Shown: positions 2,087 through 22,972 of the stretch, piece by piece | How positions within the stretch are numbered: position 1 is the first letter of the stretch | Layout: every line of letters begins with the position of its first letter | Origin: an uncultured Pseudomonadota bacterium | GTDB taxonomy: Bacteria; SAR324; NAC60-12 | NCBI GenBank assembly: GCA_964344035.1 | Contig: CAYFLK010000006.1 | Span: 26,162 to 90,161 of the forward strand | Direction of reading: 5' to 3' | DNA: 64,000 nt | The notes under the pieces: generated by a model | The model's database searches: none | Told to the model about the DNA's origin: nothing | Seen by the model: the letters and a program-made list of their open reading frames with translations, nothing else | Made by a program: the position numbers and the translations under genes

Positions 2087-2542
2087 ATGTCTGAACACAA
2101 AGCAGAGGTCTTCTGGGAAAGGGACACGGAGGACTTTGAAATCAAGACTTTCAACCGAGACCACCTGGTCCGTTTTGAAAACGGCATCACCCTGCCGGGA
2201 TCTTCAACCCCTGATTTTTCAGGAAACCCGGAGCGAGTCAACCCGGAAGACCAGTTTGTCGCGGCATTATCAAGCTGCCACATGCTTACCTTTCTCGCGG
2301 TGTCGGCGCTCAAGGGTTTAAAGGTTGAAAGCTACACGGATCACGCAGTAGGATTTCTGGGAAAAAACCCCTCCGGTCGGCTTTCCATGAACAGGGTTAT
2401 CCTGCGCCCGCGAGTACATTTTTCCAGGGAGCATGCTCCGAGCAGGGAAGTACAGGATGAAATGCACCAGAAAGCGCACCGCGGATGTTTCATTGCCAAT
2501 TCAGTACACAGCGAAGTGCTCGTCGAACCGCTGTGGCAATAG
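2087..2542 (+). CDS. OsmC/Ohr family peroxiredoxin-like protein
   Basis: About 150 aa; OsmC-like segment 'FVAALSSCHMLTFL'; ATG at 2087 follows an AGGA-like RBS; the annotated ORF start at 2045 lies upstream. Confidence 0.8.
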   Translation: MSEHKAEVFWERDTEDFEIKTFNRDHLVRFENGITLPGSSTPDFSGNPERVNPEDQFVAALSSCHMLTFLAVSALKGLKVESYTDHAVGFLGKNPSGRLSMNRVILRPRVHFSREHAPSREVQDEMHQKAHRGCFIANSVHSEVLVEPLWQ

Positions 2543-2734
2543 TCGCCGCAGCTATCCCCGTAGGCACAAATCGGGAAAACGAAAAGCGGCGTGAAAAGCG
2601 GCGTTACAAGGAAGGCGTCCGGAAGTTTACCTAACGCCGGCTTCACAGTAAGGATCATACTCGGACCCAATACAATCGGGATCTCTACCTGCCTGCGCCA
2701 AGCCTAGCGCGGCAAGCAGGTCAGGTTCGGCCCA

Positions 2735-3400
2735 TTAACTATGAGCGTGGGACCGACCACGCCACCACCAGTGCAGTTTCCTGCAATTAAACCATAACAG
2801 GGCGCCTTCCATCATTTTCGGCCATTGCACGGCCGAAATCCTCTCCTGTCCCATCAAGTGATAAATCAGGGTCGCGAGGATGGTGTCATGGGTCACCTCG
2901 ATGTGAACCTTCCCTGGAGCAGGCGGGTCTGAAAAAAACGATTCAAGCAGGATTCGCGATCCATCGGACGTTTCAGTGTGTCCCCTGAGCGACTCCAAGC
3001 TGAGCATGCGGTTGACCAGATCGAGCGGATCATGATCCTTGAATTCACGCAACGCGGTTTCCACATTGCTGATATATGCGCCTGGTTCCCCCAGTGCGGG
3101 GTTGTGCAGGACCGATAAATCCATGCCAGCACCATCGATCATGGCTTGTGCTGTCTGCATGCAGCGGATCGAGGAACTGGATGAAACCCGCGCAATCCGT
3201 CTTCCCCAGTACCTGCCGACTTGCCGGGCATATTCGATCCCTTCAGCATTGAGTTCAATCCCGGAACCAAACTTGCCTGCAAGCATGGGTGGACGTATCG
3301 AATGGCGAGTGAACAGCACCACTCCGGAACCACCGGGAAAGTCCTCATGACTGGGAAGAATTTCCGGTCTTGCCGGGTCATTGTAATACAGGGCTTTCAT
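2735..3400 (-). CDS. histidine phosphatase (phosphoglycerate mutase-like) family protein
   Basis: N-terminal 'LFTRHSIR' matches the RHG catalytic motif; about 220 aa. Confidence 0.55.
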   Translation of the reverse strand: MKALYYNDPARPEILPSHEDFPGGSGVVLFTRHSIRPPMLAGKFGSGIELNAEGIEYARQVGRYWGRRIARVSSSSSIRCMQTAQAMIDGAGMDLSVLHNPALGEPGAYISNVETALREFKDHDPLDLVNRMLSLESLRGHTETSDGSRILLESFFSDPPAPGKVHIEVTHDTILATLIYHLMGQERISAVQWPKMMEGALLWFNCRKLHWWWRGRSHAHS

Positions 3401-3428
3401 TTTTTCTGATGATTATAAAGCAGAAAGT

Positions 3429-4355
3429 TCACACTCGCAGTTTAAGTAATCCCGGCAGCACCTCGAATGCCGCGTTCAGACTCCCGGGCGATTCCCCGTC
3501 TATGTCCAACCACATAATTTCTTCAGATTCGAACTCCACCTTTCTGACCTGACAGTACTCTATTTCGGGAACATCAAGATGCGTGCCTTGGTAAACTTTG
3601 GGCAAATGCCGCAGAAACGTGCCCAGGGACATTTCATCCAGAAGCATCAAATCCAAGAGTCCGTCATTTAGTTCCGCGCGCGGGGCAACATGCATCCCGC
3701 CTCCAAAGAAACGTCCATTCGCCACCACCCCCAGCCGGGTCCTGATTTTCCTTTCAGGATGATCGTCAATCTTCAGCGTGACCTCTGTTTGAGGATGCGT
3801 GAAAACCTGATACAAGGTGGCCCAGAGAAACAGCGGTTTTCCCTTCAACCTTTTGATTCCTGAATGATCTCGCAGGTAGCGGTCCACGGCGCCACTCAAC
3901 CCGAAACTGGCGATATTCGCAAAATAACGAACGCTTCTGCCGCTTTTTTCATTTGTGAAGCTGACTTTTCCAATATCAAGATCAAGGATGGTTCCTTCAT
4001 TTGCAAGTGCGGAAATTCGTTCAAGCATGGATCCCCGAAAGCCGAAACTGCGTTCAAAATCACAACCTGATCCGGTCATCAGCATGCTGATTTCAACTTC
4101 GGGGTTCAACGGACGGTCTTCGACAATGGCGCCATTGAGAACTTCGTTCACCGTGCCGTCCCCGCCGACTGCGATAATCCATCGCGCGCCTTCCTCGACG
4201 GCCTCGCGTGTGAGGGTAATCCCGTCTCCGGCACACCGGGTAGTTCGCATTTCAAAGTCGCCCAATACCTCTTTCAGCCGCTTTTCCATCCGCGGCCAGA
4301 GTTTCCCGGTCCTGCCACAGCCGGCTTCCGGATTTACCAGCACATATGCTTTCAT
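3429..4355 (-). CDS. diacylglycerol kinase catalytic-domain lipid kinase (YegS/BmrU-like)
   Basis: 'AVGGDGTVNEV' GGDGT motif; 308 aa. Confidence 0.85.
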   Translation of the reverse strand: MKAYVLVNPEAGCGRTGKLWPRMEKRLKEVLGDFEMRTTRCAGDGITLTREAVEEGARWIIAVGGDGTVNEVLNGAIVEDRPLNPEVEISMLMTGSGCDFERSFGFRGSMLERISALANEGTILDLDIGKVSFTNEKSGRSVRYFANIASFGLSGAVDRYLRDHSGIKRLKGKPLFLWATLYQVFTHPQTEVTLKIDDHPERKIRTRLGVVANGRFFGGGMHVAPRAELNDGLLDLMLLDEMSLGTFLRHLPKVYQGTHLDVPEIEYCQVRKVEFESEEIMWLDIDGESPGSLNAAFEVLPGLLKLRV

Positions 4356-4777
4356 GACATGATGGGAAAACAGCGTTTACAAGATGAGCTTCGACAAATA
4401 ACTTGCTAAGCACGGGACATTTTTTTACTTTGTTGCATTCTTGGAAAAGAAGTGACCCCCCCTGGGAATGCACCGTTTTTCAATGTCTGCCTGATATGAT
4501 GCCATACGTAGTCTGTTTTTGTTTTTCATGATATTGTCCGCGGCTCTTGTTTTGACTGCCTGCGACTGGAACCGCAGCGCCAAAGCGCAGAGAAGGCAGT
4601 ATGCCTCCGGGGGTACTGATGTCCCTGCAGCGTCAAAAAACGCGCTGACCCGCGGTTTAGACTATCACAAGCTTTCCGCTGATACCCTCATCCGTTCGAT
4701 GCGCCGGCCATGAACAAACCCCGGGTCCTGTTTGATCAGTCCATTCAACCCGCGGGATATTTTAGCCGGCATTCCGT

Positions 4778-5710
4778 TCAATGCAGCTTGATTGCGCGGT
4801 AGAGCCGGATTTCCCTTTTCCCTTTGTAAACCTGCACAAATCCTTCAACCTGCACCCGGTCACCTTTGCGCAGGTTCCGCAAGCCCTGCAAGTTCCGTTG
4901 CTGACGGAATGTGATTACGGGTATCCCGTTTTTGCCCTGTTTGCTTCGCAGGTAAATTATCTTCGCCCCCTTCCGCAGATCCCGTGTTCGTTTGATGGTC
5001 CCGGCAACCCTTACGAAACGACCATGAAACCGTGATAAATCGAGTGTCATTGCCTCCCACTGCGCGCCAACAAACAGCGGATTGAGACGCGAATAAACCG
5101 TTTTGCCTTCTTTCTTTAGCCGTTTCAGGTACTTGTGGCGAGAAGCGCGCGTACTCCAAATGCCTCGCCGATTTTCGAAAGCCTCGGCTTCACTGCGCGC
5201 GAAGGTAATAAAATCCGCGGGCCAGGCAAACCGTGTATCAAAATAACTATGCCCGCGTGAAATCAGCATCAGGTTGAGATTGCCCCGTGCATTCTCGACA
5301 ACCGCAAGCAGACGTCCGTTGTTCCCACGCGGTTTTTCCGGATTGATCCACAGGGTTGCGGGTTGTTCGGAAAGCCCCCTGCGCAGAAATTCCCCGGCCG
5401 GTTTCCCGAAAACCACGTCCCGCCCTTTGTGCGATGAGGACAGTTCCGGAGTATCTACATACAAAAGCCGGATGCGCTCCCTTGATTTTGAAAAACGACC
5501 GTTTCCGTTCAGGTCGGCGTCGAACGTGTCCCCGTCGATCACCCTTACCGGGATATTGTTCAATGAAATACTTTCCCAGTTTCCCGGAATCTCCTGTCCA
5601 GTGGCAAACGAACTCCGGAGAAACGCCCCGAGAAAGAAAAGTAGAAACCTGACCTGCACTATTTTATCATGGGTAAAAAATCCTTTTTGACGATACAAGT
5701 AAAACTCCAA
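4778..5710 (-). CDS. secreted thermonuclease (SNase-like) with C-terminal OB-fold-like extension; true start probably internal
   Basis: 'VIDGDTF' SNase motif after a hydrophobic signal-like segment (FLLFFLGAFL); no clean ATG found before the signal peptide. Confidence 0.7.
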   Translation of the reverse strand: MEFYLYRQKGFFTHDKIVQVRFLLFFLGAFLRSSFATGQEIPGNWESISLNNIPVRVIDGDTFDADLNGNGRFSKSRERIRLLYVDTPELSSSHKGRDVVFGKPAGEFLRRGLSEQPATLWINPEKPRGNNGRLLAVVENARGNLNLMLISRGHSYFDTRFAWPADFITFARSEAEAFENRRGIWSTRASRHKYLKRLKKEGKTVYSRLNPLFVGAQWEAMTLDLSRFHGRFVRVAGTIKRTRDLRKGAKIIYLRSKQGKNGIPVITFRQQRNLQGLRNLRKGDRVQVEGFVQVYKGKREIRLYRAIKLH

Positions 5711-5826
5711 TTGCTACTGTCCATGCTCGGTGGTTTCACCCTGAGTATCACTGGTCTGCTCAGCAAGTCCGTTGACAGGGACCACATAGTTTTGTACTGC
5801 AGTTGGTCCCGAGAAACAAGAGTTCG

Positions 5827-6810
5827 ATGAAAAAAAATAAGCCGACCACAAGTCGATGGCCGAAAAAGATAAGGTCCCTGCTTGTCTGTGCTTTCTGTTT
5901 TCTCGCGGGCTGTAATTCCATGTTCTACTATCCCAGTGAAAAAATCTTCTTTACTCCCGAAATGCTGGGTATCAACCATGAAAACGTTCGTTTCAGCAAC
6001 CGCAGCGGAAACTTGCTGCATGGCTGGTTCGTACCCTCAAGCATAACGCCCGCCAAGGGGACCCTGCTTTTTCTTCATGGAAACGCCCACAACATCAGCC
6101 ATTATTTCCTTTCGGTGCAGGGATTTCAGCATGCGGGATATCACCTGTTCACCTTCGACTACCAGGGCTTCGGGTATTCCCAGGGAGAGCCGTATCCGGC
6201 AGGGACCCTGGACGACGCGGAAGCGGCGCTGAGTTACCTGCTTGGCAGGGAAGACATGGACCCGGACCGTATCATAGTCTTTGGACAAAGCCTGGGGGGT
6301 ACGATCGCCTTAAACTGGATCGGTTCAAAAAAACCCGGGCATATTGCCGCCGTCATTTCCGAATCGGCTTTTTCTTCCTACCGCAAGATTGCCAGGGAAA
6401 AGATGAACCCCATCGGAATCCTGCGCTGGTTTCGTGAACCAATCACACGCTGGTTTGTGGATGACGAATTTTCTCCGGAACCGGTGGTCGCCGAAATCTC
6501 CCCCGTGCCGCTGCTGATTATACACGGGACAAGGGACCCGGTAGTCCCCTATGAACATGGTATGCGCCTGTATGCCGCAGCCCGGGAGCCGAAGGAATTT
6601 TGGACCATCATCGGCGGTGGACACACTGAGATGCTGGGCAGGTTCCGGACGCATTACTGGGATCGCCTGCTGAGCTACCTCGACAATGTTTTGCGGGAGG
6701 CATCTCAAGAAAATGACTTGTGGGCCGTGTCCCCGCCGGCAGACCCGTATCTTTCTCAACCGCACACCGGGCATCCGCGGGAAACGGGATTCCCCGGCTT
6801 GGTGTTTTAA
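5827..6810 (+). CDS. alpha/beta-hydrolase lipoprotein (dienelactone hydrolase / BAAT-like)
   Basis: Lipobox 'FLAGC'; nucleophile elbow 'GQSLGG'; start taken at MKKNK at 5827. Confidence 0.85.
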   Translation: MKKNKPTTSRWPKKIRSLLVCAFCFLAGCNSMFYYPSEKIFFTPEMLGINHENVRFSNRSGNLLHGWFVPSSITPAKGTLLFLHGNAHNISHYFLSVQGFQHAGYHLFTFDYQGFGYSQGEPYPAGTLDDAEAALSYLLGREDMDPDRIIVFGQSLGGTIALNWIGSKKPGHIAAVISESAFSSYRKIAREKMNPIGILRWFREPITRWFVDDEFSPEPVVAEISPVPLLIIHGTRDPVVPYEHGMRLYAAAREPKEFWTIIGGGHTEMLGRFRTHYWDRLLSYLDNVLREASQENDLWAVSPPADPYLSQPHTGHPRETGFPGLVF

Positions 6811-6885: not shown

Positions 6886-6961
6886 TCCCCAATAGCTCAG
6901 TTGGTAGAGCAAGTGGCTGTTAACCACTGGGTCGCTGGTTCGAGTCCGGCTTGGGGAGCCA
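6886..6961 (+). tRNA. tRNA-Asn (anticodon GTT), CCA encoded
   Basis: Acceptor stem TCCCCAA/TTGGGGA; D-arm AGCTCAGTTGGTAGAGC; anticodon loop CTGTTAA; T-arm GGTTCGAGTCC; 76 nt. Confidence 0.92.
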
Positions 6962-7136: not shown

Positions 7137-8684
7137 ATGTCTCCCCTTAACATCCCGAACCTGGAATTATCTGCGCTCACCCTTGAAGAAAAGGTATGGC
7201 TGACGCGGGTGATGGCGGAAATCGTGGCGGGTAATGATGCAGTGAAATCCCGTTCACGCAAGGGGTTTGAGCAGACACTCGGCAGTTTTCAAAACCGCGA
7301 GCAGGCAGCGCATTTACTGGAAGCGCTGAACCAACGCCCCATGCCTCCGTGGCCCGCGATAAAGACTGATCGTCAGCGGGCGTTGACCCTTCTGTATCGC
7401 CTGGCAACAGTGATGGCGGCGGATCATGTGGTATCGCGCAGGCAGGTGAAATTGTTTCGGAAAGCCCTATCGGCCTTGGGCTTCTCCAAACTCGATCACC
7501 CCCTTCTGCTGGGTCACGTACAAAACATCATCGTTGCCGGAAAACCAAACGCGGCAATCCTCACTACTACTGATTTTGTAAGGATCACACTGCAGGATTT
7601 CTCCGACACCCATTGTGTTTTCAGCTTCCACCGTCCGCTGGTGCCCGGTGTGTTCATTTTGGTGCAGGTGCGTGCCCTCGCACGTACTGAAACATATCAT
7701 GCTCCCATCCATGCTACAGTTCGCTCGATATCAAAAGGGCCTTTTGAAAACGGGAGCTACCTCATCCATGCGGAATTTCAACAGCGCCTGGGATCCCGTC
7801 ACGGGCTGCGGGAGTTTTGGAATCCTGCACTTTCGAAACAGGACAGCGCCAAGGGATACGGGATTGTAGAACCAGGAGATGGGTCCCTGATTGGCCGGTA
7901 CGTCGGATGTCCGGCCTGCACCGAGCCCGGGCTGACGTTCTGGCATCTGCGTACGAACACTATGCACCGCGGTGAAAACCTGTTTGGGGTCCCGCACTAC
8001 CATGCTTCTTTTCCGGGGTACGATTTTTGCGATTTCAATCTGCTTCGGGTAACGGTTTGTCCGCGGTGTTTTTTTGCTTCAGCGCGGGAAAAGGATTTTC
8101 TCCAGTCCCCCGGAGAGAATGCGCATTTTGATGTGCACAGATTCAACAGGCACTGGGAATCACAGTTTAAGCGGTTGAAACATGAACTGCATAACTTTCC
8201 GCAATCGTTTGGCAAGGTGCATCGAAAACCGGAACACGCTGTCCAGGCCTATGAGATTGCCGTCGGCACGATGCGTACACTCAATCGTTTGCATGAGAAT
8301 GAGGAATTTTTGTGGGAAATTGTTAGGCTGCGCCTGATCCAGGCGGAAATGTCGATGCAACTGAAGCGGCGTGATGAGGCCCAGAAGCAATTGAAAGATG
8401 CGCTTGAACTGCTGAAAGCCGGGAACTCGAAATTCAGCGATGAACGAGAAATCCAGGTCCTGTTGTCAAAGTTCCTGCTGCACAACTATTTCCGGGAATC
8501 CGATGCTGCCTTGTCCTGTTATAAGCAATTGCGGAACCTGAAACCCAAGGCGAATACGGGGACGTTGTATTCGGTGATGCTACAGGACTCCTTGAAAAAA
8601 GCGCACTGGGTTAATTCCCACGGGAAGGATTTGAATCATGCGACGATGTCTGATTTCCACATCTCCGGTTTCACGGGTGATTAG
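7137..8684 (+). CDS. multidomain hypothetical protein with TerB-like N-domain, possible degenerate PilZ-like barrel and C-terminal DUF2225-like zinc ribbon plus helical domain
   Basis: N-terminal paired-helix motif '...LATVMAADHVVSRRQVKLFRKALSALGF' is TerB-like; 'CPAC...(N35)...CPRCFFASAREKDF' matches the DUF2225 zinc-ribbon pattern; GGAG RBS before the ATG. Confidence 0.65.
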   Translation: MSPLNIPNLELSALTLEEKVWLTRVMAEIVAGNDAVKSRSRKGFEQTLGSFQNREQAAHLLEALNQRPMPPWPAIKTDRQRALTLLYRLATVMAADHVVSRRQVKLFRKALSALGFSKLDHPLLLGHVQNIIVAGKPNAAILTTTDFVRITLQDFSDTHCVFSFHRPLVPGVFILVQVRALARTETYHAPIHATVRSISKGPFENGSYLIHAEFQQRLGSRHGLREFWNPALSKQDSAKGYGIVEPGDGSLIGRYVGCPACTEPGLTFWHLRTNTMHRGENLFGVPHYHASFPGYDFCDFNLLRVTVCPRCFFASAREKDFLQSPGENAHFDVHRFNRHWESQFKRLKHELHNFPQSFGKVHRKPEHAVQAYEIAVGTMRTLNRLHENEEFLWEIVRLRLIQAEMSMQLKRRDEAQKQLKDALELLKAGNSKFSDEREIQVLLSKFLLHNYFRESDAALSCYKQLRNLKPKANTGTLYSVMLQDSLKKAHWVNSHGKDLNHATMSDFHISGFTGD

Positions 8685-11707: not shown

Positions 11708-12622
11708 TCAATCTATGTGCTGGACGATGTACTGCAAATGTTGACGATTTGTTCCGCAACAACCTCCCAGGATTTTGACGCCGTATTTCCTGTTCAACTC
11801 GATCATCCTGTCTCCCCAATCCGATATCGAATCGGCTTTAAGAGTCGCTGAACCGTCAAGTTGCGTGTGGTCGAGAGATGACCCGTTGGCTTGAAAGCCA
11901 ATTAGACGTGACAAGACATCACGGGGTTGCCTTTGCGCGTTGAGAAACGAAGGATAAGCGCAATTGACCATGAAACCCAGCGGAGGTCGGCGGCACAGCG
12001 AATCTATCTCTCCGAATGCGTCTTCAAGACTGTTCTCATCGAGTATCCTGCCTTCCCTGCCGATTACGAAACTGATGATATAAGGGATCTCTGTTTCCGC
12101 CAAGGCAAGGGCAATGCCTTTCGCTTCGGGGACTGCGGGCAGGGTTGCCGCTTGTACAAATTCCACACCGGCTTCGCAAAGCAGATCAATTTGCCGGGAG
12201 TGAAATGCTTTAGCTTCCTGTGTAGATAATCCTTCCTCGGGCTTGTAACAGTCATTTTTGCAGCCGATCACCCCCCCGATGAAGATGTTTGCGGCCCATG
12301 ACCCCCATCCCTCTCTGAGCTGTTTCACGAACTGCACGTCATCTCCGTTCACATCAGAGGAGATCCCGGCAAGTGAAAGGCGTTCCCGGTTTGCCCGCCA
12401 CGTCGGCGCACATACCGCTATGGGAACATCGGCATCACGGGCAACAGCTATATAATCCTCATAGAGCCCGGACAAAAGCCGTTTGCCGTTTTCATCATAT
12501 ATCAGGAGTGCGTGTTCCAGACGTGGGTGAAGGATAACCTCTCCGGACCTCCGTAGCGTTTCAGTGATGGACGCTTCCGTCAATACCAGGCTTTTGTTTT
12601 CGAGCACATCATGCAGGTTCAT
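11708..12622 (-). CDS. mmuM: homocysteine S-methyltransferase family protein
   Basis: Pfam S-methyl_trans-like; C-terminal 'ILGGCCGTNRQHL' zinc-binding motif; 304 aa. Confidence 0.85.
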   Translation of the reverse strand: MNLHDVLENKSLVLTEASITETLRRSGEVILHPRLEHALLIYDENGKRLLSGLYEDYIAVARDADVPIAVCAPTWRANRERLSLAGISSDVNGDDVQFVKQLREGWGSWAANIFIGGVIGCKNDCYKPEEGLSTQEAKAFHSRQIDLLCEAGVEFVQAATLPAVPEAKGIALALAETEIPYIISFVIGREGRILDENSLEDAFGEIDSLCRRPPLGFMVNCAYPSFLNAQRQPRDVLSRLIGFQANGSSLDHTQLDGSATLKADSISDWGDRMIELNRKYGVKILGGCCGTNRQHLQYIVQHID

Positions 12623-12838: not shown

Positions 12839-14287
12839 TCAGGCGGATGCAGTACCATCAAGTTCAGGATAATTCCACCCGGATTCACGTTCATAGATAC
12901 TCGCGCATTGAAATAAACGCCCCTCATCAAAAGGATGTCCGACAAGTTGAAACCCCGTAGGCAGCCCGTTGGCGGTATGCCCCGCCGGAACCGTAAGGGC
13001 CGGCAGTCCCAGGTAGTCAAATGGTCTGGTGCAGTGTCCGAGCTGGTTTATGTATTCCAGGAATCCCGGATTCGCTTTCAGGTCAGATTCCGCTAGGGTC
13101 GGCACGGGCAGAAGCGAAACCGGCGCGTGGAGAATATCAGCTTTTCCCAGTACCTCCTGGAGGAACTCCTCCAACACCAATTTCCGCAGGTTGAGGGCTT
13201 CTAAGTAATCCGTCGCCGGATAGAGCAGTCCGGCCATGAATCTTTCCCGGGTTTGAGAACCGTACTCCTCCGACCGTTCGCGCAGCCAGTTACTGTGGAT
13301 GGCGGCGCCTTCAGCGCCGGTGATGAGGTTGACCATCGCGTTACTGATTGAAAAACTCTCCGGCATTTTAACTTCTACCAGTTCGGCCCCCGCCTGTTTG
13401 AACACATCCAGGCTATGTTCCATGCATACACGAACCTCGTCATGCAGGCCCTCCGTGAAGTAGGATGCGGGAACGCCCAGCCTGATGCCCTTGATGCTGT
13501 TTCGGATGTTTGAAGTATAATCCGTGACAGGTTTTGCGGCGCAGGTGGGGTCGTCAGGATCCGCGCCGCTTATTTCCCTGAGAATCAAGGCAGCGTCCGC
13601 CACTCCTCGAGTAAGGGGGCCGACGTGATCAAGGCTGGCCGCCAGCGGCATCACCCCGAAGCGGCTGACGCGGCCGTAGGTCGGTTTCATTCCCACCAAC
13701 CCGCAGCATGATGCGGGGAAACGGATAGAGCCGCCGGTGTCGGACCCCAACGCGCCGTAGATCAAGCGTCCACCAACCGCAGCAGCGGGGCCGCTGGACG
13801 AACCCCCGGGGATGTATTCCACATTCCAGGGATTGCGCGTGTTGCCGTGGACTTCGTTGTGTCCGGTCAACCCATACGCGAATTCCACCATTTGCAGCCT
13901 CGCAATGTCCAATGCGCCCGCGGCATCGAGCCTCCGCAGCGCGGTCGAGGTCACTTCAGGGACAAAACCAGCGCGTATTCTGGAACCGCATCCGCTGATG
14001 CGCCCCCGGCGATAAAACATGTCCTTGTGGGCAAGCGGAACCCCGTGCAGGGCCCCCCGCAAGCGTCCGGAGGCAAGCTCCGCGTCAGCTGCTTCCGCGT
14101 CTGATAATGCCTGCTCCGCATCCATTCCGGCGAGGCAGTTGAGTTTTGGATGTAGGTTTTCCAACCGTTCCAGACAGTTGCGCGTAAGTTCAACGGACGA
14201 TACCTTTTTGCCGGCAACGGCCTCGGCTGCTTCGGCAAGGGTCAGACTGGATAGCGCCTCATCCGCCATCGCTGATTCCGTTTTCAT
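12839..14287 (-). CDS. amidase-signature family amidase (GatA-like)
   Basis: 'GGSSSGPAAAV' and 'GSDTGGSIRFPAS' amidase-signature motifs. Confidence 0.85.
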   Translation of the reverse strand: MKTESAMADEALSSLTLAEAAEAVAGKKVSSVELTRNCLERLENLHPKLNCLAGMDAEQALSDAEAADAELASGRLRGALHGVPLAHKDMFYRRGRISGCGSRIRAGFVPEVTSTALRRLDAAGALDIARLQMVEFAYGLTGHNEVHGNTRNPWNVEYIPGGSSSGPAAAVGGRLIYGALGSDTGGSIRFPASCCGLVGMKPTYGRVSRFGVMPLAASLDHVGPLTRGVADAALILREISGADPDDPTCAAKPVTDYTSNIRNSIKGIRLGVPASYFTEGLHDEVRVCMEHSLDVFKQAGAELVEVKMPESFSISNAMVNLITGAEGAAIHSNWLRERSEEYGSQTRERFMAGLLYPATDYLEALNLRKLVLEEFLQEVLGKADILHAPVSLLPVPTLAESDLKANPGFLEYINQLGHCTRPFDYLGLPALTVPAGHTANGLPTGFQLVGHPFDEGRLFQCASIYERESGWNYPELDGTASA

Positions 14288-14492
14288 CCGCGGAACATGC
14301 ATTCCGGGAAAGCGAATGTGCGAACCCCGAAGGTTCAGATTCTAAGGGCAGGCGCCGCAGAAAAGGCTGTTTGACTGCCAGCAATCCGGATATAGTGCTG
14401 AGCACCCTGCGCAGGCGGAGGGAGTCTGGGTCCCAACCCCGTGCATGCGCCCAGTCCGTCAGGATGGATTCGATCGAGGCCTGCATGCCGAC

Positions 14493-17036
14493 TCAACGTT
14501 TCTGAAACTGCTTGACCTGGTCCAGTCCGCGCTGGATCTCGTTTTCTACCACCGATTCCGGAGAACCCATCGCCCTTCCCAGTTCTCTCAGCAGTGTCTG
14601 TTCCTGCGGATCAAAATCGCGGTCAACGGTGGCAATGTCGGTCAGTTCCCTGAGTATGCGGTTTTTGTCCTCGTCGGATAAACCGAATACATTTCCGGGC
14701 TCGATTTTGCTGCCTAACAGGATGGCTTCCTCAAGCTGCCGCACATGTTCAGGGTTTTCGAGAATGTGGATTGCGCCGTGAAGGTAGGTACGTTCATAAA
14801 GATCGATCCGTTCGTCTGCCATGATCATCTGGGTGATCGCTTTGGCATACCAGAATTTCTGATCCTCGTTTAAGTGGTCCATCAGCACCATGTTAAGTTG
14901 CTTGTCCGACTCACGGAACTGCGCTTCGCTTTCACGCAGGACTTTGATCGACTTCAGCGCCTTCTGTGCGCCGTCATTGCCGTCAACCGCCGCGGCACGG
15001 AACCAGTAGTAGGCCTCATCCACGTTTCTGGGCACGCCTTGGCCGTGGAAATTCATGATGCCAAGATTGTATTTCGCACGCGCGTTGCCCTTGATCGCCG
15101 ATTCAAGGAAAAGCCGGTAGGCTTCCATCGGTTCGCCTTTCTGTTTGGTAACCATCACCCCTTTGCGGAACAACTCGTCCGCATCGGTTTTTTCCATTTC
15201 CTCGAACTCCATCCCTTCTTTTAATCCGGCCGCCTCCGGTTTGCGCAGCACACCCAGAAAATGGGGCAGGTAGACATCATCCTCGATCGGCTGATCCGTG
15301 CGCGCCATAAACAGCAGCGTGTCTCCGGCAGCCACCAGGACATCGTTTCTCGGGTTGAGGAGCATCCTCCCGTTTTCCCCTCGGATCAAGGCAACGGGAA
15401 GATGTGATAGGGTTTTTTTCATGTGCACGATGGTATCAACCCATGGGCTGGCCTGCCATTTCGGACTGAGTTTCCGGGAAAACAGGCTTTCGCTGGACGG
15501 TTCTCCGGAGATCACACGTTCGATCAACACACCCGCGCCGGGGTGCACCGCGGTTTGTGACAGCACCGGTGCGGTCAGTTCATTGGCGCTGATGCTGAAG
15601 TCACAGCCGGCCCTTTCCAGCTGCTGGTCGAAGTCCGTTTCGCGGTAGCTGGCTATGGTAAAAATCGTTCCCCCGGTCGATTGCTCCATCTCCAGCACTG
15701 CCATCAGGGTCAGACCGTCGTGCAGGTGATCGACGAAGGCGACCTTCGCTTCAGTGGCCCGCGCGCGCGCGAACGATTCCGCGGAATATGAAACAGCCTG
15801 GATCCATTCAACGCGCAGGGATTCCGGAATCGAATCCAGCAGTTCAAGCTCGGAGACGACGACCACCTCTTCGTCATTTGAAAGGTAGGACAATTCGAGC
15901 AGCAGACGTTCGATGAAATACCGGTTGTCAGAGGAGATGACGATGTGTCCATGCGGGGCGATGTCTTCCGAGCCCGGAAATGCTATTGCGTCGTCAAGCC
16001 CGTCTCCTTCGGGACGGTCCGTGGCGGGCACCTGGATGAGGACCCTGTGTTTTTCAGTCAGCATCAGTTCCGATTCCGGATTGACCATCACCGAGGTGTC
16101 CTCCACCAGTCCCATCGGCAACAGGCCCTTGTGCCGTTTCATTTTTTCTATGTAATCAAGCCACGATTTGCCGATCACGTCTTCCGGGAGGGGATGGTTT
16201 TCCAGGGTCGGAGTGTCCGATTTCTGCACCCGCGAGCCATACTGGCTTTCTGACCCGCGCAGGATCAGTTGCAGGATCCACCACGGGGTGCCCTGTGATC
16301 GGTATGCGCTGACCATCATCGGCACATAAAGCGTGTATGGATCCATAGCGTGATCGCAGCCGACTTCTTCAAAATGCTGCCGTTTCTCCTGGCCGATGTA
16401 CTGCGCCATGGTGATCGCGTCTCCGATGGTGAGGCTTTCGATCTGCATCACCGTCATCAACGCCTGGCTGTCGTCTGAATATGAAACGTATGCGATGTAA
16501 GCGTGTTTCGCGGAAGCCTTGCGCAGGATATCGTTTCTGTAGCCGTTTCCGGAAACCCACGGTATTTTCTTGAACTGAGTATCGGTGAGCAGGGGATGTT
16601 CGGAAAACGGGCAGACCAGCGCAACACGGTTCTGCCGCACAAACTGACGGTTTTCCTCCAGGATTTCCCGGATGAATACCACGTCGTCTGAACAGATCAG
16701 CACGTGGTTCTGCATCTTCACTTCATCCAGCCCCCGCTCCTTCGTGCCGCGAAACGAGTAAAACAGATTGGAGACAAGGGAGATGATGATCGACATCTGT
16801 ACAATCCCGCCCGCCATCACCAGGAAGCTGAAGAGTTGGCCAGCCGGAGTGACCGGGGACATATCACCGTACCCTACAGTGGTAATCGTCACTACCGTCC
16901 ACCAGAGGCTACTGAACAGGTTGTTGAAAGCGCTTCCCTGGTCACCTGTGATCACGTATTCCAGGATCCAGATGCCCAGGGTTGAAACCAGCAGCAGCCC
17001 CGGCAGGGCGATCAGAAGAAGTAATCGGACCTTCAT
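14493..17036 (-). CDS. potassium channel fused to RCK/TrkA-like domains, Sel1 repeats and C-terminal TerB-like domain
   Basis: Pore helix and selectivity filter 'TITTVGYGD'; two transmembrane segments; about 500 aa of RCK-like region; Sel1-like 'YNLGIMNFHGQGVPRNVDEAYYWFRAAA'; C-terminal 'IMADERIDLYE...DIATVDRDFDPQEQTLLRELGRAMG' is TerB-like. Confidence 0.8.
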   Translation of the reverse strand: MKVRLLLLIALPGLLLVSTLGIWILEYVITGDQGSAFNNLFSSLWWTVVTITTVGYGDMSPVTPAGQLFSFLVMAGGIVQMSIIISLVSNLFYSFRGTKERGLDEVKMQNHVLICSDDVVFIREILEENRQFVRQNRVALVCPFSEHPLLTDTQFKKIPWVSGNGYRNDILRKASAKHAYIAYVSYSDDSQALMTVMQIESLTIGDAITMAQYIGQEKRQHFEEVGCDHAMDPYTLYVPMMVSAYRSQGTPWWILQLILRGSESQYGSRVQKSDTPTLENHPLPEDVIGKSWLDYIEKMKRHKGLLPMGLVEDTSVMVNPESELMLTEKHRVLIQVPATDRPEGDGLDDAIAFPGSEDIAPHGHIVISSDNRYFIERLLLELSYLSNDEEVVVVSELELLDSIPESLRVEWIQAVSYSAESFARARATEAKVAFVDHLHDGLTLMAVLEMEQSTGGTIFTIASYRETDFDQQLERAGCDFSISANELTAPVLSQTAVHPGAGVLIERVISGEPSSESLFSRKLSPKWQASPWVDTIVHMKKTLSHLPVALIRGENGRMLLNPRNDVLVAAGDTLLFMARTDQPIEDDVYLPHFLGVLRKPEAAGLKEGMEFEEMEKTDADELFRKGVMVTKQKGEPMEAYRLFLESAIKGNARAKYNLGIMNFHGQGVPRNVDEAYYWFRAAAVDGNDGAQKALKSIKVLRESEAQFRESDKQLNMVLMDHLNEDQKFWYAKAITQMIMADERIDLYERTYLHGAIHILENPEHVRQLEEAILLGSKIEPGNVFGLSDEDKNRILRELTDIATVDRDFDPQEQTLLRELGRAMGSPESVVENEIQRGLDQVKQFQKR

Positions 17037-17257: not shown

Positions 17258-18718
17258 TCACTCCAAACGGGTCCGATTGACGGCGGGGCGTGTCATAAGG
17301 GAGGAGACCAGCGCGGCCGCGTAAAAGCCGATGATCACCAGGTATGAAACTTTCCAGGCGTGTATGAATGCTTCCATTGATCCAGAAACTTGACCTACCT
17401 GGGACAACTCCAGGTTGAATCCTGCTGAAGCCATAACCGCGGTGATCACTGCCGTCACGGTCGCCTGTCCGATGACGTTTCCCGTGTTCCGTGTCAGATT
17501 TACCAGCGCTCCGACTGGTCCCAGGCTTGATTTCGGCGTGGAATTCATTGTGGACACCAGGTTTGGGGTGGCCCACAGTCCCATTGAAACCCCGTTGACA
17601 AACAGGACACTGAGAATTAAGATCATCGAAGTCTTCTCATCAAAAAATGCCATTCCCAATCCGCTGATAATGGCGATCAGAAACCCGATGATCATGTAAC
17701 GGTCGGGGTCATGGCGGTCTGACAACCGCCCTCCCGCCTGGGCCCCGATGCCCATCCCGATAGCGGCGACCAGCATGATCATCCCGATCATGCCTGCATT
17801 GATTTGCTTGATGTTAAGCAAAAAAACCGGGAGTAGAAGAAAGGAAGCGGCGCGGCTCATGAAACCCAAAACACGCGTGATTGACGCGTAGCGGAAAACC
17901 GGATTGGCAAACAGTCTGATGTCAATAATTGGGGAGCGTGTTTTACTTTCAACCGCCGCAAACCAGATCAGCAACAGTAGACTGAGCAGCAGACCTCCGA
18001 ACATCATCAGCCGTGGGTTGTCCGGACGGAAGGGGTTGTTGATGGTGAGCACGAAAACCAGCATCAATGCCGCGGATAACACCGCCCCTGGCCAGTCGAA
18101 AATCCGGTCCCGCGCCTGGAATGAACCGATTTTATCGTCGTCAAGTATGAAATAACCCCAGAAAAACGCCGCCGCCGCCGGGATGGCCATCGCAATGAAC
18201 AGCGCCTGCCACGGAAAGAACTGCAACAATATTCCCGCTACCACCGGTCCACTCGCACCGCCGACGGCCACCGCGGTCGTGCTGGCCCCGATCCCTTTCC
18301 CACGTTCCTGTGGAGGAAAAATCGAAACCACGATTGCAGTGCCGACCCCCTGGCCCATTGCCGATCCGACTCCCATGATGACCCGCCCGCCAATCAGCAG
18401 CGCCAGACCTTTCGACAGGGCGCACAAGAGAGCACCCCCGGCAAACAACCCCAGCCCCCAAAGCAGGCACCTCCGACGTCCCACCAGGTCGGAAAAACGC
18501 CCAAGAGGCATTAGTAGAGCAGTCACCGTCAACGAAAAACCGATCACCACCCACGAAACTTCACGCAGAGTGACGTGAAAATCCCGCGCGATCACCGGCA
18601 GCGCGAGGATGTTGATGCTCATGCTCATCACCATCGTCACCAGCGATAACGCCACCGCGAAAAACGCTTTCCACTTGTAGGGGATCCTTCCTTCAGACAC
18701 GGCAGCAACTGTGGTCAT
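17258..18718 (-). CDS. MFS transporter, DHA2 (EmrB/QacA) drug:H+ antiporter family
   Basis: About 14 transmembrane segments; 'GRFSDLVGRRRCLLWGL' MFS motif A; 486 aa. Confidence 0.85.
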   Translation of the reverse strand: MTTVAAVSEGRIPYKWKAFFAVALSLVTMVMSMSINILALPVIARDFHVTLREVSWVVIGFSLTVTALLMPLGRFSDLVGRRRCLLWGLGLFAGGALLCALSKGLALLIGGRVIMGVGSAMGQGVGTAIVVSIFPPQERGKGIGASTTAVAVGGASGPVVAGILLQFFPWQALFIAMAIPAAAAFFWGYFILDDDKIGSFQARDRIFDWPGAVLSAALMLVFVLTINNPFRPDNPRLMMFGGLLLSLLLLIWFAAVESKTRSPIIDIRLFANPVFRYASITRVLGFMSRAASFLLLPVFLLNIKQINAGMIGMIMLVAAIGMGIGAQAGGRLSDRHDPDRYMIIGFLIAIISGLGMAFFDEKTSMILILSVLFVNGVSMGLWATPNLVSTMNSTPKSSLGPVGALVNLTRNTGNVIGQATVTAVITAVMASAGFNLELSQVGQVSGSMEAFIHAWKVSYLVIIGFYAAALVSSLMTRPAVNRTRLE

Positions 18719-18743: not shown

Positions 18744-19447
18744 TTAATAATGCATTTTATTGTATAATATCATATCATTATGTGCTAGAATAGGTGTACA
18801 TAATTGCAATGTTTTCCCACATTCACCCGCAAAACCCTGCAAATTAATTGCATGAAAGGAAATCCGATGAAAGGGAATTCGCCGGATCCAAATCAAGCAA
18901 GCTTTCTCTTCAATGGACTGAGGGAGCAGCTGAACCCCAGGCATCCGATCTACCAGCCCAGTGAGCACATCGACTGGTCATCCCTGGAGGATGATTTTGC
19001 GAGGCTGTACTCTCGTAGAGGCCGCCCAGCCAAACCAGTGCGCCTGATGGTCTCCCTTCTTCTTTTAAAACAGCTTCATGACCCCAGTGACGATCAGGTT
19101 GTTGAACGCTGGATTGAAAATCCTTACCGGCAGTTTCCCAGTGGTGAGAAAGAACTCCAATGGTCCGCTCCGGTGGCCTCATCGGACCTGACCCACTTCA
19201 GGAAGAGGATCGGCAAGAAGGGCGCTGAGCGAGTACTGAAACTGACGGTGGAACTCTTTGATGAAAAGATCAAATCAGATCAATGTCACCCTGGCCGCTA
19301 CTGCCCACAACCTGAGAAAATGGATCCGGCTCAGGCTGGATCGTTTTTTTGGGCCTTTTTTTAGAACCCTCAAATACAACTATTTACTACACTTTAGTGA
19401 CTCCAGGTCTGCTTTTTATCCAGCTATGAATTTTTAAGGGTCAACTA
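18734..19447. mobile_element. IS5-family insertion-sequence remnant bounded by 14-bp perfect terminal inverted repeats TAGTTGACCCTTAA (18734-18747 and 19434-19447)
   Basis: Inverted repeats read directly from the sequence; interior encodes a truncated DDE transposase; AT-rich. Confidence 0.6.
18849..19364 (+). pseudogene. IS5-family transposase fragment with internal deletion (N-terminal DUF772-like region fused out of frame to the C-terminal tail)
   Basis: 'GRPAKPVRLMVSLLLLKQLHDPSDDQVVERWIENPYRQFF' is the IS5 N-terminal domain; the C-terminal tail '...INVTLAATAHNLRKWIRL' is in another frame at 19290-19350. Confidence 0.6.
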
Positions 19448-19964: not shown

Positions 19965-20363
19965 TCAGTAATGCAAAGGGAGTGACAAGCGATCCAGTCC
20001 TTCAATAGCTTCGTAATCTCGGTCCAGGGTAAACAGGGTTAGATTTCGATTCAGACAGACAGTAGCGATCAGAGCATCTGTAGCCGATAGGGTCCGGCCG
20101 TTTTGTCGCAAGTCGTTCATAAGATTTCCCGCGCATTGCCAGTCTTTTCGCTCAATGGTGACCCAGCGTAGGGCGCCGAGCAAGAGCATAAACTCATCAC
20201 GATCATGCTGGCGCACAACGCGCAATAGTTCCATTTCCACAACACCGCACAGTAACACCTGATCCGCGGCAATGAGAGAATCCAGTAACATTGCGTGTTT
20301 GCTCGTTCCTTGTCTGAAGTATTCTATCCAGACGGATGTATCCACCAACACTTCATCATTCAT
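19965..20363 (-). CDS. vapC: type II toxin VapC (PIN-domain ribonuclease)
   Basis: 'LVDTSVWIEYF...' PIN N-terminus with acidic residues; overlaps the upstream antitoxin by 8 nt. Confidence 0.8.
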   Translation of the reverse strand: MNDEVLVDTSVWIEYFRQGTSKHAMLLDSLIAADQVLLCGVVEMELLRVVRQHDRDEFMLLLGALRWVTIERKDWQCAGNLMNDLRQNGRTLSATDALIATVCLNRNLTLFTLDRDYEAIEGLDRLSLPLHY

Positions 20364-20571
20364 GAGAGGCTTCTTCGATCTCAAGACTTCTCAATTCCCG
20401 AAGATTCCCCTCCCATTCCAGTCTCCCCCGATATTCTCTCAATCTTTGCAGTTTTCGTAGCCTCACCCAATCCTTCAGGGCTTGATTGACTGCTTCTGTT
20501 TTGGTGTGAGAGGTGGTTGCATGCATGACTTCATGCATCACATTATCGCTAACATTAATTGTGATTCTCAT
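20356..20571 (-). CDS. vapB: type II antitoxin VapB-family (DUF2191 / ribbon-helix-helix-like)
   Basis: 'MRITINVSDNVMHEVMHATTSHTKTEAVNQALKDWVRLRK', a typical VapB antitoxin N-terminus. Confidence 0.75.
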   Translation of the reverse strand: MRITINVSDNVMHEVMHATTSHTKTEAVNQALKDWVRLRKLQRLREYRGRLEWEGNLRELRSLEIEEASHE

Positions 20572-21601: not shown

Positions 21602-22660
21602 TTACTGGGTGGGAATCTTGGAGATCACGCCTTTGACGTAATAATTCATGGAGAGCATTTCCCCGTCATTCAAGGCTTGGCTGATTCGGGTCCCGTCCTG
21701 TTTGGTGACCCCGTTGCGGAACACATCCGAGGCCCCGCTGACGAGCTGCCCTTTCGCGCTGTTGACCTTGTCAATCAGAGATTGCGGGATGTCAGGATGG
21801 AACGAAGTCAACCCGACGATGCCCGAATCGATGCCCCACCAGTCGGCGGCGGGTTTCCACGATCCGGATTCCACTGCCTTCGCGGCGTGCAGATAATACA
21901 CGTCCCAGTTCCAGACTGCCGCGGTCAGGTGTGCTTCCTTGCCGTAGATTGACATGTCGGAGTCGTTCCCGATCGCGAACACACCGTTTTTCTTTGCGAC
22001 CTGCACCGGAGAAGCGGAGTCGGCGGTGGTGATGATGATGTCCGCGCCGTTGTCGATAAGTGCCTGGGCGGCATCGCCTTCCTTGGTCGGGTCAAACCAG
22101 CTGTTGATCCAGATGACTTCCACTTCAATTCCCGGATTGACCTGCTGCGCACCCATGGTCATCGCGTTGATGTGACGTATGATTTCCGGAATCGGCTGCG
22201 AACCGACGATGCCGATGCGGCCTTTTTTTGACATCCCCGCGCCAATCATCGCGGCCAGGTACTTGGCCTGATACATCCGACCGAAGTAATTGCCCATGTT
22301 GTCGGCCTGTTTGAAGCCGGAACAATGGAGAAACACTTTGTCAGGAAACTTTCCCGCGACTTTCAGCGTCGGGTCCATGTATCCGAAGCTGGTTGTGAAC
22401 ACGATGTCGTTTTTGCGCGCAAGTTTGCGGATCACGCGTTCAGAATCGCCTTCCGGAACACTCTCTACATATTCCGTCTTGTATCCCGCCGCTTCCAGGG
22501 CCTTGCGACCGAGATCATGCGCGTATGTCCAGCCTCCGTCCCCGATGGGGCCGACGTACACGAAAGCCGCGGTAGGCTTGCCCGCCCACGCGGCGCCTCC
22601 CAGAACAAGCAGCATTGCCGCCGCCAGCGCGGCGATTTTGGATGGAATGGTTTTCATACA
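21602..22660 (-). CDS. BMP-family ABC transporter substrate-binding lipoprotein (nucleoside-binding PnrA-like)
   Basis: Signal peptide 'MKTIPSKIAALAAAMLLVLGGAAWA'; BMP-family length and pattern. Confidence 0.85.
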   Translation of the reverse strand, partial: CMKTIPSKIAALAAAMLLVLGGAAWAGKPTAAFVYVGPIGDGGWTYAHDLGRKALEAAGYKTEYVESVPEGDSERVIRKLARKNDIVFTTSFGYMDPTLKVAGKFPDKVFLHCSGFKQADNMGNYFGRMYQAKYLAAMIGAGMSKKGRIGIVGSQPIPEIIRHINAMTMGAQQVNPGIEVEVIWINSWFDPTKEGDAAQALIDNGADIIITTADSASPVQVAKKNGVFAIGNDSDMSIYGKEAHLTAAVWNWDVYYLHAAKAVESGSWKPAADWWGIDSGIVGLTSFHPDIPQSLIDKVNSAKGQLVSGASDVFRNGVTKQDGTRISQALNDGEMLSMNYYVKGVISKIPTQ

Positions 22661-22972
22661 CATCTCCTGATGACAGTTAAGCACGGGCAACCCCGCCAGA
22701 AAAACGGCCTAAGCGATATCATTTTCGGCTTACTCAAACCGATCTACATTTGGATTGCCGGCTGAGCGGGAACCATGGTTCCCGGGTAAAGCCCCGGGGT
22801 TACCCCGAAGCAAACGGATAAACCGCCGGATTGCTTCCCGGCAGGCCCAAATAAGACATTCCCACGTGTGACCCATTCCCGGAACCAACCGGATTCGGGT
22901 GATGGCAGTACAGTTTTTGCACATTCATGAATGACCCGCTGGTGTCGAACCCATAACGGCATCCACAGGCAT

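Follow-up and report, generated by a model that had tools for sequence, protein, structure and literature searches.

The 64-kb stretch of DNA analyzed here (64,000 nucleotides from an uncultured SAR324 bacterium; hereafter, the window) encodes in one open reading frame (ORF) a potassium channel with two transmembrane (2-TM) helices, followed by two tandem RCK domains, Sel1-like repeats and a C-terminal TerB domain. Judged by its modeled fold, the core falls among the known tandem-RCK (GsuK/Slo type) K+ channels. The core, Sel1 and TerB all belong to known families; the combination of channel, Sel1 and TerB is undescribed in the literature searched, and the named sequences that have it all come from SAR324. 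A bestrophin carries this cassette of Sel1 and TerB as well. On balance we lean toward a K+ channel in which each subunit adds a Sel1–TerB sensor or adaptor to the tandem-RCK ring, where it would modulate gating. An initial annotation, made from sequence alone, called the K+ pore, RCK, Sel1 and TerB regions correctly and described the architecture as unusual, an opinion that its confinement to SAR324 and the literature searched bear out; the tandem arrangement of RCK1-RCK2 and the missing NAD motif went unrecognized.

A tandem-RCK potassium channel core

The gene and its domains occupy the following positions in the window:

14493..17036, minus strand: complete K+ channel–tandem RCK–Sel1–TerB gene, 847 amino acids (aa) plus stop codon (ORF list, translation)
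16737..17036, minus strand: 2-TM pore, residues 1-100 (Pfam Ion_trans_2, PDB matches, helices of the AlphaFold2 [AF2] model)
16002..16736, minus strand: RCK1, residues 101-345, a Rossmann-like lobe and a C-lobe with a variable insert at 263-285 (Pfam, Foldseek, DSSP of the model)
15252..16001, minus strand: RCK2, residues 346-595 (Pfam, AF2 model, Foldseek, column counts)
15204..15251, minus strand: flexible linker from gating ring to cassette, residues 596-611 (pLDDT, identity)
14910..15203, minus strand: about 2.5 Sel1-like repeats, residues 612-709 (Pfam, solved Sel1 proteins, family identity)
14496..14909, minus strand: TerB-fold domain, residues 710-847 (Pfam, profile against PDB, column counts)

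The single 847-aa ORF, which the initial annotation had placed correctly but given no strand, is intact on the minus strand: it starts with ATG, has an AAGGA Shine-Dalgarno-like motif ~11 nucleotides upstream of that start, and contains no stop codon or frameshift. A protein identical to that of the window (P0001) is present in public NCBI and ENA assemblies. A promoter and terminator scan returned no promoters, and terminator-like sites did not exceed the number expected from shuffled sequence. The four Pfam families anticipated for the protein, Ion_trans_2, TrkA_N, Sel1 and TerB, all score above their cut-offs.

An AF2 monomer model of the full-length channel was built from an alignment of 35 sequences and has a mean predicted local distance difference test (pLDDT) score of 82.8. 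In this model, M1 spans residues 2-28, the pore helix residues 40-53 and M2 residues 64-100. The selectivity filter TTVGYGD lies at residues 52-58, encoded at 16863-16883, and T53, G55, G57 and D58 of the filter region are invariant among the 35 sequences. Pfam Ion_trans_2 covers residues 24-92 with 55.2 bits (cut-off, 22.5), and the pores of KvAP, KcsA and MthK match that of the channel among PDB sequences with E values of 1e-9 to 1e-15.

Behind the pore, the model contains two Rossmann-like beta-alpha-beta lobes (residues 111-231 and 365-483), and a C-lobe comes after each of them. Pfam TrkA_N matches two stretches of the protein, the better of them at residues 156-232 with 37.6 bits (cut-off, 23.8), and Slo-like_RCK matches residues 107-202 with 26.1 bits (cut-off, 24). 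In the C-lobe of RCK2, Castor_Poll_mid stays below threshold (residues 548-585, 23.7 bits; cut-off, 26.7), and TrkA_C gives a weak match in the same place; RCK2 also carries a conserved D436-H437-x2-D440. RCK1 searched on its own against PDB sequences gave no meaningful match to a solved RCK domain. When the full-length model was compared with the PDB by Foldseek, GsuK (4gx5) ranked first (E = 4e-22), together with the tandem-RCK channels Slo1 and Slo2.2, and it is because of this ranking that the core is assigned to the tandem-RCK gating-ring K+ channels.

The comparison also brings out what is particular to the SAR324 protein. Like the multi-ligand-gated GsuK of Geobacter sulfurreducens (4gx0, 4gx2, 4gx5), it combines a bacterial 2-TM K+ pore with two tandem RCK domains in one polypeptide; however, the two share only 16-17% identity, and GsuK chains (~546-548 residues) end after RCK2, without Sel1–TerB. 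With the eukaryotic Slo1/BK and Slo2.2 it shares the tandem RCK1-RCK2 gating ring below the pore (TM-score ~0.5 over ~700-770 aligned columns), whereas identity is 12-15%, the Slo channels possess voltage-sensor helices S0-S4 and defined Ca2+ or Na+ sites where the SAR324 channel has only two transmembrane helices, and the extra tail of the SAR324 channel is Sel1–TerB. The pore and first RCK lobe of MthK align over channel residues 21-241 (E = 1e-13), but MthK, a Ca2+-gated channel of archaea, has one RCK domain per subunit and neither Sel1 nor TerB. A rough manual alignment suggests that the counterparts of the MthK Ca2+ ligands (D184, E210 and E212) may not be acidic in the channel.

Databases name members of the channel family variously as "NAD-binding protein," "ion channel," "SEL1-like repeat protein" and "voltage-gated potassium channel." The first of these labels is probably a misnomer, because the glycine motif GxGxxG of NAD-binding proteins is absent from the beta1-alphaA turn of both RCK domains. 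Among the 35 sequences these turns are nearly invariant and free of glycine, reading C115-S116-D117 in RCK1 and S369-D370-N371 in RCK2. GsuK, in contrast, was crystallized with NAD (title of entry 4gx2), and the SAR324 channel has C-S-D and S-D-N in place of the glycine-rich loop.

The Sel1–TerB cassette and its second host channel

The gating ring gives way to a stretch in which the model loses confidence (pLDDT <50 at residues 595-611), after which helices resume at residues 608-631, 636-648, 652-664, 672-684 and 688-709, the Sel1 region. Pfam Sel1 matches residues 652-683 with 33.7 bits (cut-off, 30.7) and reaches 68 to 72 bits, with two repeats, in more distant members of the family; residues 632-694 also align with two Sel1 proteins of solved structure, 8sxq and 6ok3 (E = 1e-20). 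The TerB helices of the model span residues 716-846. In the full protein, Pfam TerB (PF05099) gives a partial match at residues 786-826 with 25.6 bits (cut-off, 24.4), which rises to 30.7 bits when the C-terminus is taken in isolation. PF05099 likewise matched every family C-terminus tested (19/19; best E = 5.9e-11), and a profile of the family C-termini returned only three matches from the PDB (2h5n, 2ou3 and 2jxu), all of TerB fold, that to 2h5n covering positions 25-139 of the 149-position profile. The assignment of the C-terminal 120 aa to TerB in the initial annotation is thus upheld by profile models.

With canonical TerB proteins (PF05099; 2jxu from Klebsiella pneumoniae, 2ou3 of COG3793, and 2h5n, PG_1108) the domain shares its helical fold and a duplicated D-x6-E motif. 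Each copy (D741...E748; D805...E812) spans the turn of a helix-loop-helix, and both are strongly conserved: both glutamates are present in 35/35 sequences, D741 in 34 and D805 in 33. Further conserved residues of the domain are R749, H753, E769, E770, R806 and F808. Canonical TerB differs in being a free-standing protein of ~150 aa encoded in terZABCDEF operons, whereas here it ends the polypeptide of a channel whose gene has no ter genes around it. Mean pairwise identity among the 35 sequences is 57% in the pore, 57% in RCK1, 54% in RCK2, 55% in Sel1 and 50% in TerB, compared to 15% in the linker (residues 596-615). Because Sel1 and TerB are so close to the pore in this respect and the linker so far from it, the cassette is, by sequence identity, under the same constraint as the channel to which it is joined by a free linker.

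The fusion recurs throughout the family. Among 5.8 billion proteins searched, the channel has 82 strong relatives, ~70 of which are clusters of full-length homologues (827-850 aa, 40 to 60% identity) that have the same precomputed Pfam set, including PF05099, and are drawn from independent NCBI, ENA, JGI and Logan assemblies. Every named homologue is listed as "SAR324 cluster bacterium," "Candidatus Lambdaproteobacteria" or "Deltaproteobacteria bacterium." Of 185,579 species-representative genomes, five metagenome-assembled genomes (MAGs) carry full-length relatives, at seven loci in all; two of these genomes, NYUB01 and JAYOTF01, have two full-length paralogues each. A metagenome scan seeded on the TerB motif recovered 79 loci, and in 76 of these the cassette is immediately preceded by pore and RCK; at the remaining three, too little upstream DNA is available to tell. 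SAR324 also possesses short paralogues of 563 to 585 aa that end after RCK2 and lack the cassette, and because these exist, the cassette can be regarded as an add-on to a working type of channel.

The cassette is not restricted to K+ channels. When 1.84 billion representatives were searched with a TerB-domain profile, 1,044 proteins reached E ≤ 0.001, among them five channel-family representatives; the fourth-best match (P0091; E = 2e-49) combines Bestrophin_2, Sel1 and TerB. Full-length versions (P0241, 566 aa; P0242, 567 aa; e.g., MDE0907090.1) occur on dozens of contigs, are annotated as "bestrophin family ion channel [SAR324 cluster bacterium]" and match Pfam Bestrophin_2 with an E value of 1e-60. 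These proteins carry the same cassette on a channel part that is unrelated to K+ channels and has no RCK. Over 230 residues, their cassette shares 60% identity with residues 619-846 of the window channel (E = 6e-90), and it is nearer to that of the window than to that of any other channel clade; in a neighbor-joining cassette tree (without bootstrap) it is sister to the clade formed by the window channel and P0002-P0004. This identity and nesting indicate that the cassette was passed from the K+ channel lineage of the window to a bestrophin within SAR324.

Bestrophins and the cassette-bearing channel also meet as neighbors, at the following positions:

L087:6179-7879: bestrophin–Sel1–TerB gene
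L088:5795-7495: bestrophin–Sel1–TerB gene
L008:6888-7751, minus strand: stand-alone bestrophin gene
L008:8001-10532: K+ channel–Sel1–TerB gene

In the sister clade of the window channel (L008 and L090-L094; lineages of P0002, P0003 and P0004), a stand-alone bestrophin of 288 aa is encoded divergently, 246 to 458 bp upstream of the channel gene, and shares 55 to 58% identity with the bestrophin portion of the fusion protein. As identity among the channels of these lineages is just 67%, the adjacency has been kept over some evolutionary distance. The window itself contains no bestrophin. In the shared intergenic region, conserved motifs bearing ATGCAT (e.g., GCAAAGCAAxTCCxATGCATTTT and CTGGTCCAxxTCATGCAT) were observed, which could form a common operator. 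At L087, a gene for a CASTOR/POLLUX-like tandem-RCK protein (4196-6169, 657 aa) precedes the fusion gene with a gap of 9 nucleotides, and an Ion_trans_2–pentapeptide-repeat gene (2415-3437) lies nearby, giving the appearance of an ion-channel gene cluster. We considered whether the bestrophin fusion arose by insertion into an orthologue of the window channel and rejected this origin, as the upstream RCK protein is CASTOR/POLLUX-like and no orthologue of the window channel, and the flanks show no synteny with L008 or L090. Gene neighborhood and gene fusion are classic evidence of a functional link, and here the two together would connect the cassette-bearing K+ channel functionally with bestrophin. 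The pairing and fusion hint at coordinated regulation of K+ and anion channels in bacteria.

Function of the cassette and alternative explanations

We propose that four subunits form a K+-selective 2-TM channel, as homology of fold would predict, and that its cytoplasmic gate would be an eight-RCK ring to which every subunit contributes a tandem pair, the arrangement of GsuK and Slo/BK channels. A flexible linker of ~16 residues would hang the Sel1–TerB cassette below this ring. In this position, TerB may bind a small ligand through its two D-x6-E helix-loop-helix motifs, a proposed metal site in the comparative-genomics literature on TerB, with a divalent metal the likeliest candidate. Alternatively, it may respond to inner-membrane state, and TerB has been discussed as a possible amphitropic or membrane-surveillance domain (bioRxiv 10.1101/2025.09.30.679545). 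The event at TerB would then be relayed by the Sel1 repeats, which would dock on the gating ring or recruit a partner, and the relayed event would change the open probability of the channel. Because the linker is weakly conserved and the cassette is also found on bestrophin, the cassette is better described as a portable module carried by each subunit than as an integral part of the RCK ring.

Two points weigh against a gating role. An all-against-all comparison of ORFs from 16 loci found no conserved neighbor or operon partner of the channel that would point to a signal. In addition, the two scaffolds of the cassette differ in symmetry, one being tetrameric and the other pentameric, and a tether or adaptor explains this no less well than an allosteric gate does. 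Of the "TerB-gated or TerB-tethered" K+ channel put forward in the initial annotation, the K+ channel with TerB stands, while gating by TerB is just one possibility, given the poorly conserved, low-confidence linker and the presence of the cassette on bestrophin.

The cassette might instead serve purely as a scaffold or tether that localizes or clusters the channel or recruits a protein, for example through TerB–TerB pairing with a TerB–DUF2225 protein encoded 6 kb away, or with a TerC-like membrane protein. We regard this as rather unlikely, though it has a good deal in its favor: the linker is flexible and unconserved, the cassette is borne by tetrameric and pentameric channels alike, and Sel1 repeats are typical protein-interaction modules. 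Moreover, a TerB-like defense protein is predicted to homodimerize (bioRxiv 10.1101/2025.09.30.679545), and a TerC–TerB complex has been reported, with TerB as a partner of membrane proteins (PMC12054061).

A possible partner of the channel is encoded in the window itself. The features concerned are:

7137..8684, plus strand: second TerB-like protein, 515 aa, of the TerB–DUF2225 (zinc-ribbon/TPR-like) family
7167-7487, plus strand: its TerB-like N-terminal domain, residues 11-117 (cassette profile)
6886-6961, plus strand: tRNA-Asn (GTT), just upstream of the TerB–DUF2225 gene and the sole RNA gene detected in the window

This second TerB-like protein, already pointed out in the initial annotation, is real by indirect evidence: Pfam TerB remains below threshold at 13.9 bits, whereas the profile of the channel cassette matches across the whole domain (residues 11-117) with 18.5 bits, and homology to P0172, a TerB–DUF2225 protein (family members, ~500 to 520 aa), extends over the full length (E = 3e-41). 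N-terminal domains of this family rank high against the cassette profile, and one member from SAR324 (P0163) scores 30.4 bits with Pfam TerB. TerB–DUF2225 proteins are also found in SAR324 MAGs that carry a channel of the window family, a co-occurrence that favors tethering. However, the two genes are close to each other only in the window and its duplicate contig and not in the 14 other loci, no partner gene is conserved, and the copy in the window lacks the conserved acidic residues. Because the conserved glutamates of both its D-x6-E motifs are replaced, by R and Q, its TerB domain may be degenerate or nonbinding.

Beyond the channel family, the TerB profile matches comprised tandem TerB proteins, TerB(x1-2)–DUF2225, STAS–TerB, methyltransferase–TerB and adenylate cyclase–TerB–DUF2225 proteins. 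The same TerB subtype is found in P0179 (1165 aa), P0128 (385 aa) and P0215 (503 aa), which are fusions to cyclase, STAS and methyltransferase, respectively. That several of these architectures are of a signaling type suggests that TerB may have a general role as sensor or adaptor.

A role in antiphage abortive infection, in which TerB would sense a perturbation of membrane or envelope caused by phage and the channel would then open and collapse ion gradients, appears improbable to us. It draws on the presence of TerB domains in the defense systems Shango, Bunzi and Dionysus, the last of which pairs a TerB-like protein with a four-transmembrane-helix pore-forming effector (bioRxiv 10.1101/2025.09.30.679545), and on the PIN-domain gene and transposase fragment 2-3 kb upstream of the channel, which appear among the genes surrounding it:

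17258-18718, minus strand: MFS transporter gene, adjoining the channel gene
12839-14302, minus strand: amidase gene
11708-12622, minus strand: homocysteine S-methyltransferase gene
around the channel gene: EamA genes, a ribosome hibernation factor gene and DUF3015 genes
18804-19364, plus strand: DUF772 transposase fragment
19965-20384, minus strand: PIN-domain (VapC-like) gene
21602-22690, minus strand: Bmp-family ABC substrate-binding gene, further upstream, with ABC transporter genes and QueG

The resemblance to these systems, which combine a TerB module with a membrane-permeabilizing element, ends at their organization: Dionysus, Shango and Bunzi are built from several genes and separate polypeptides and reside in defense hotspots of Proteobacteria, whereas the SAR324 channel is a single gene in a housekeeping context. 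No helicase, ATPase or defense genes adjoin it, its neighbors being MFS, amidase, methyltransferase, ABC transporter and QueG genes. PADLOC reported nothing relevant in the window and did not match the channel protein, and no relatives of the family were found on viral contigs. Where the organism is named, the family is found only in SAR324, with two full-length paralogues in each of two genomes and short, cassette-less forms in other SAR324 MAGs, and is not patchy in the manner of defense genes. The selectivity filter, moreover, is that of a strict K+ channel and not of a toxin pore. Nor were ter genes (terZ/A/C/D/E/F) found around the channel in the window. Because the context features of the ter (tellurite) system and of the known TerB defense systems are lacking, the channel belongs to neither; the link to tellurite, membrane-stress and phage-resistance islands raised in the initial annotation finds no support here, as there are no flanking ter or defense genes, the neighbors are unconserved and viral relatives are absent.

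The 16-locus comparison recovered synteny at the level of clades only: an MFS gene is shared with L008, and KefC-like genes are shared by L002, L006 and L007. The latter belong to a clade of 836-aa paralogues, in which the KefC-like genes lie immediately downstream of the channel on the opposite strand, two each in L002 and L006 and one partial in L007:

L002:8574-12400: KefC-like genes (Na_H_Exchanger and TrkA_N)
L006:8883-12277: KefC-like genes
L007:3302-4207: KefC-like gene, partial

They give the channel a K+-homeostasis neighborhood that is restricted to this clade. One of the 16 loci has a TerD gene (191 aa; L004:5145-5720) immediately before the channel gene and in the same orientation; as the 15 others have none, we treat the linkage as coincidental. 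An amidase and a Bmp gene near the channel, as in the window, were also observed in the distant locus L002 (12689-14116 and 14459-14511), and this proximity may be a remnant of older synteny. In the window, the DUF772 fragment and the PIN gene, which lie between the MFS gene on one side and the operon of the Bmp/ABC transporter on the other, are a small remnant of a mobile or toxin-antitoxin element.

That the fusion is an artifact, with separate channel and Sel1/TerB genes joined by misassembly or miscalling, can be discounted for practical purposes: the one seemingly stand-alone Sel1–TerB protein that would speak for it (P0393; 233 aa, 60 member sequences) was rejected as an independent cassette, being itself the product of a 100-N scaffold gap (L089:1594-1693) that splits a full channel gene in a Tara assembly, and the uninterrupted ORF of the window, the ~70 full-length clusters from four sources of assemblies and the pore and RCK directly preceding the cassette in 76/79 metagenome loci all argue against it.

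Implications for TerB and for SAR324

Despite the spread of TerB through tellurite operons, stress responses and antiphage systems, its ligand or signal is still unclear (PMC12054061; bioRxiv 10.1101/2025.09.30.679545). In the SAR324 protein, TerB is attached covalently to a K+ channel, a class of protein open to bilayer and patch recording, and the same domain is found on a second, unrelated type of channel. Since TerB here sits on channels whose activity can be recorded, an effect of a ligand or of the membrane on TerB could show as a change in current. A link between TerB and K+ channels, or K+ channels of SAR324, was undescribed in the literature searched. For the well-studied family of RCK-gated channels, Sel1–TerB represents a new accessory module.

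SAR324 is an abundant, uncultivated lineage of the deep ocean whose ion homeostasis is, to our knowledge, essentially unstudied. We tentatively speculate, while considering it a doubtful proposition at present, that Sel1–TerB is a transferable "plug-in" that gives unrelated channels the same TerB-sensed signal, be it a metal or the state of the membrane, and through which SAR324 would co-regulate its cation and anion fluxes. If this is true, the current through such a channel would be a direct readout of the TerB signal, a question that has been open since the ter operons were described.

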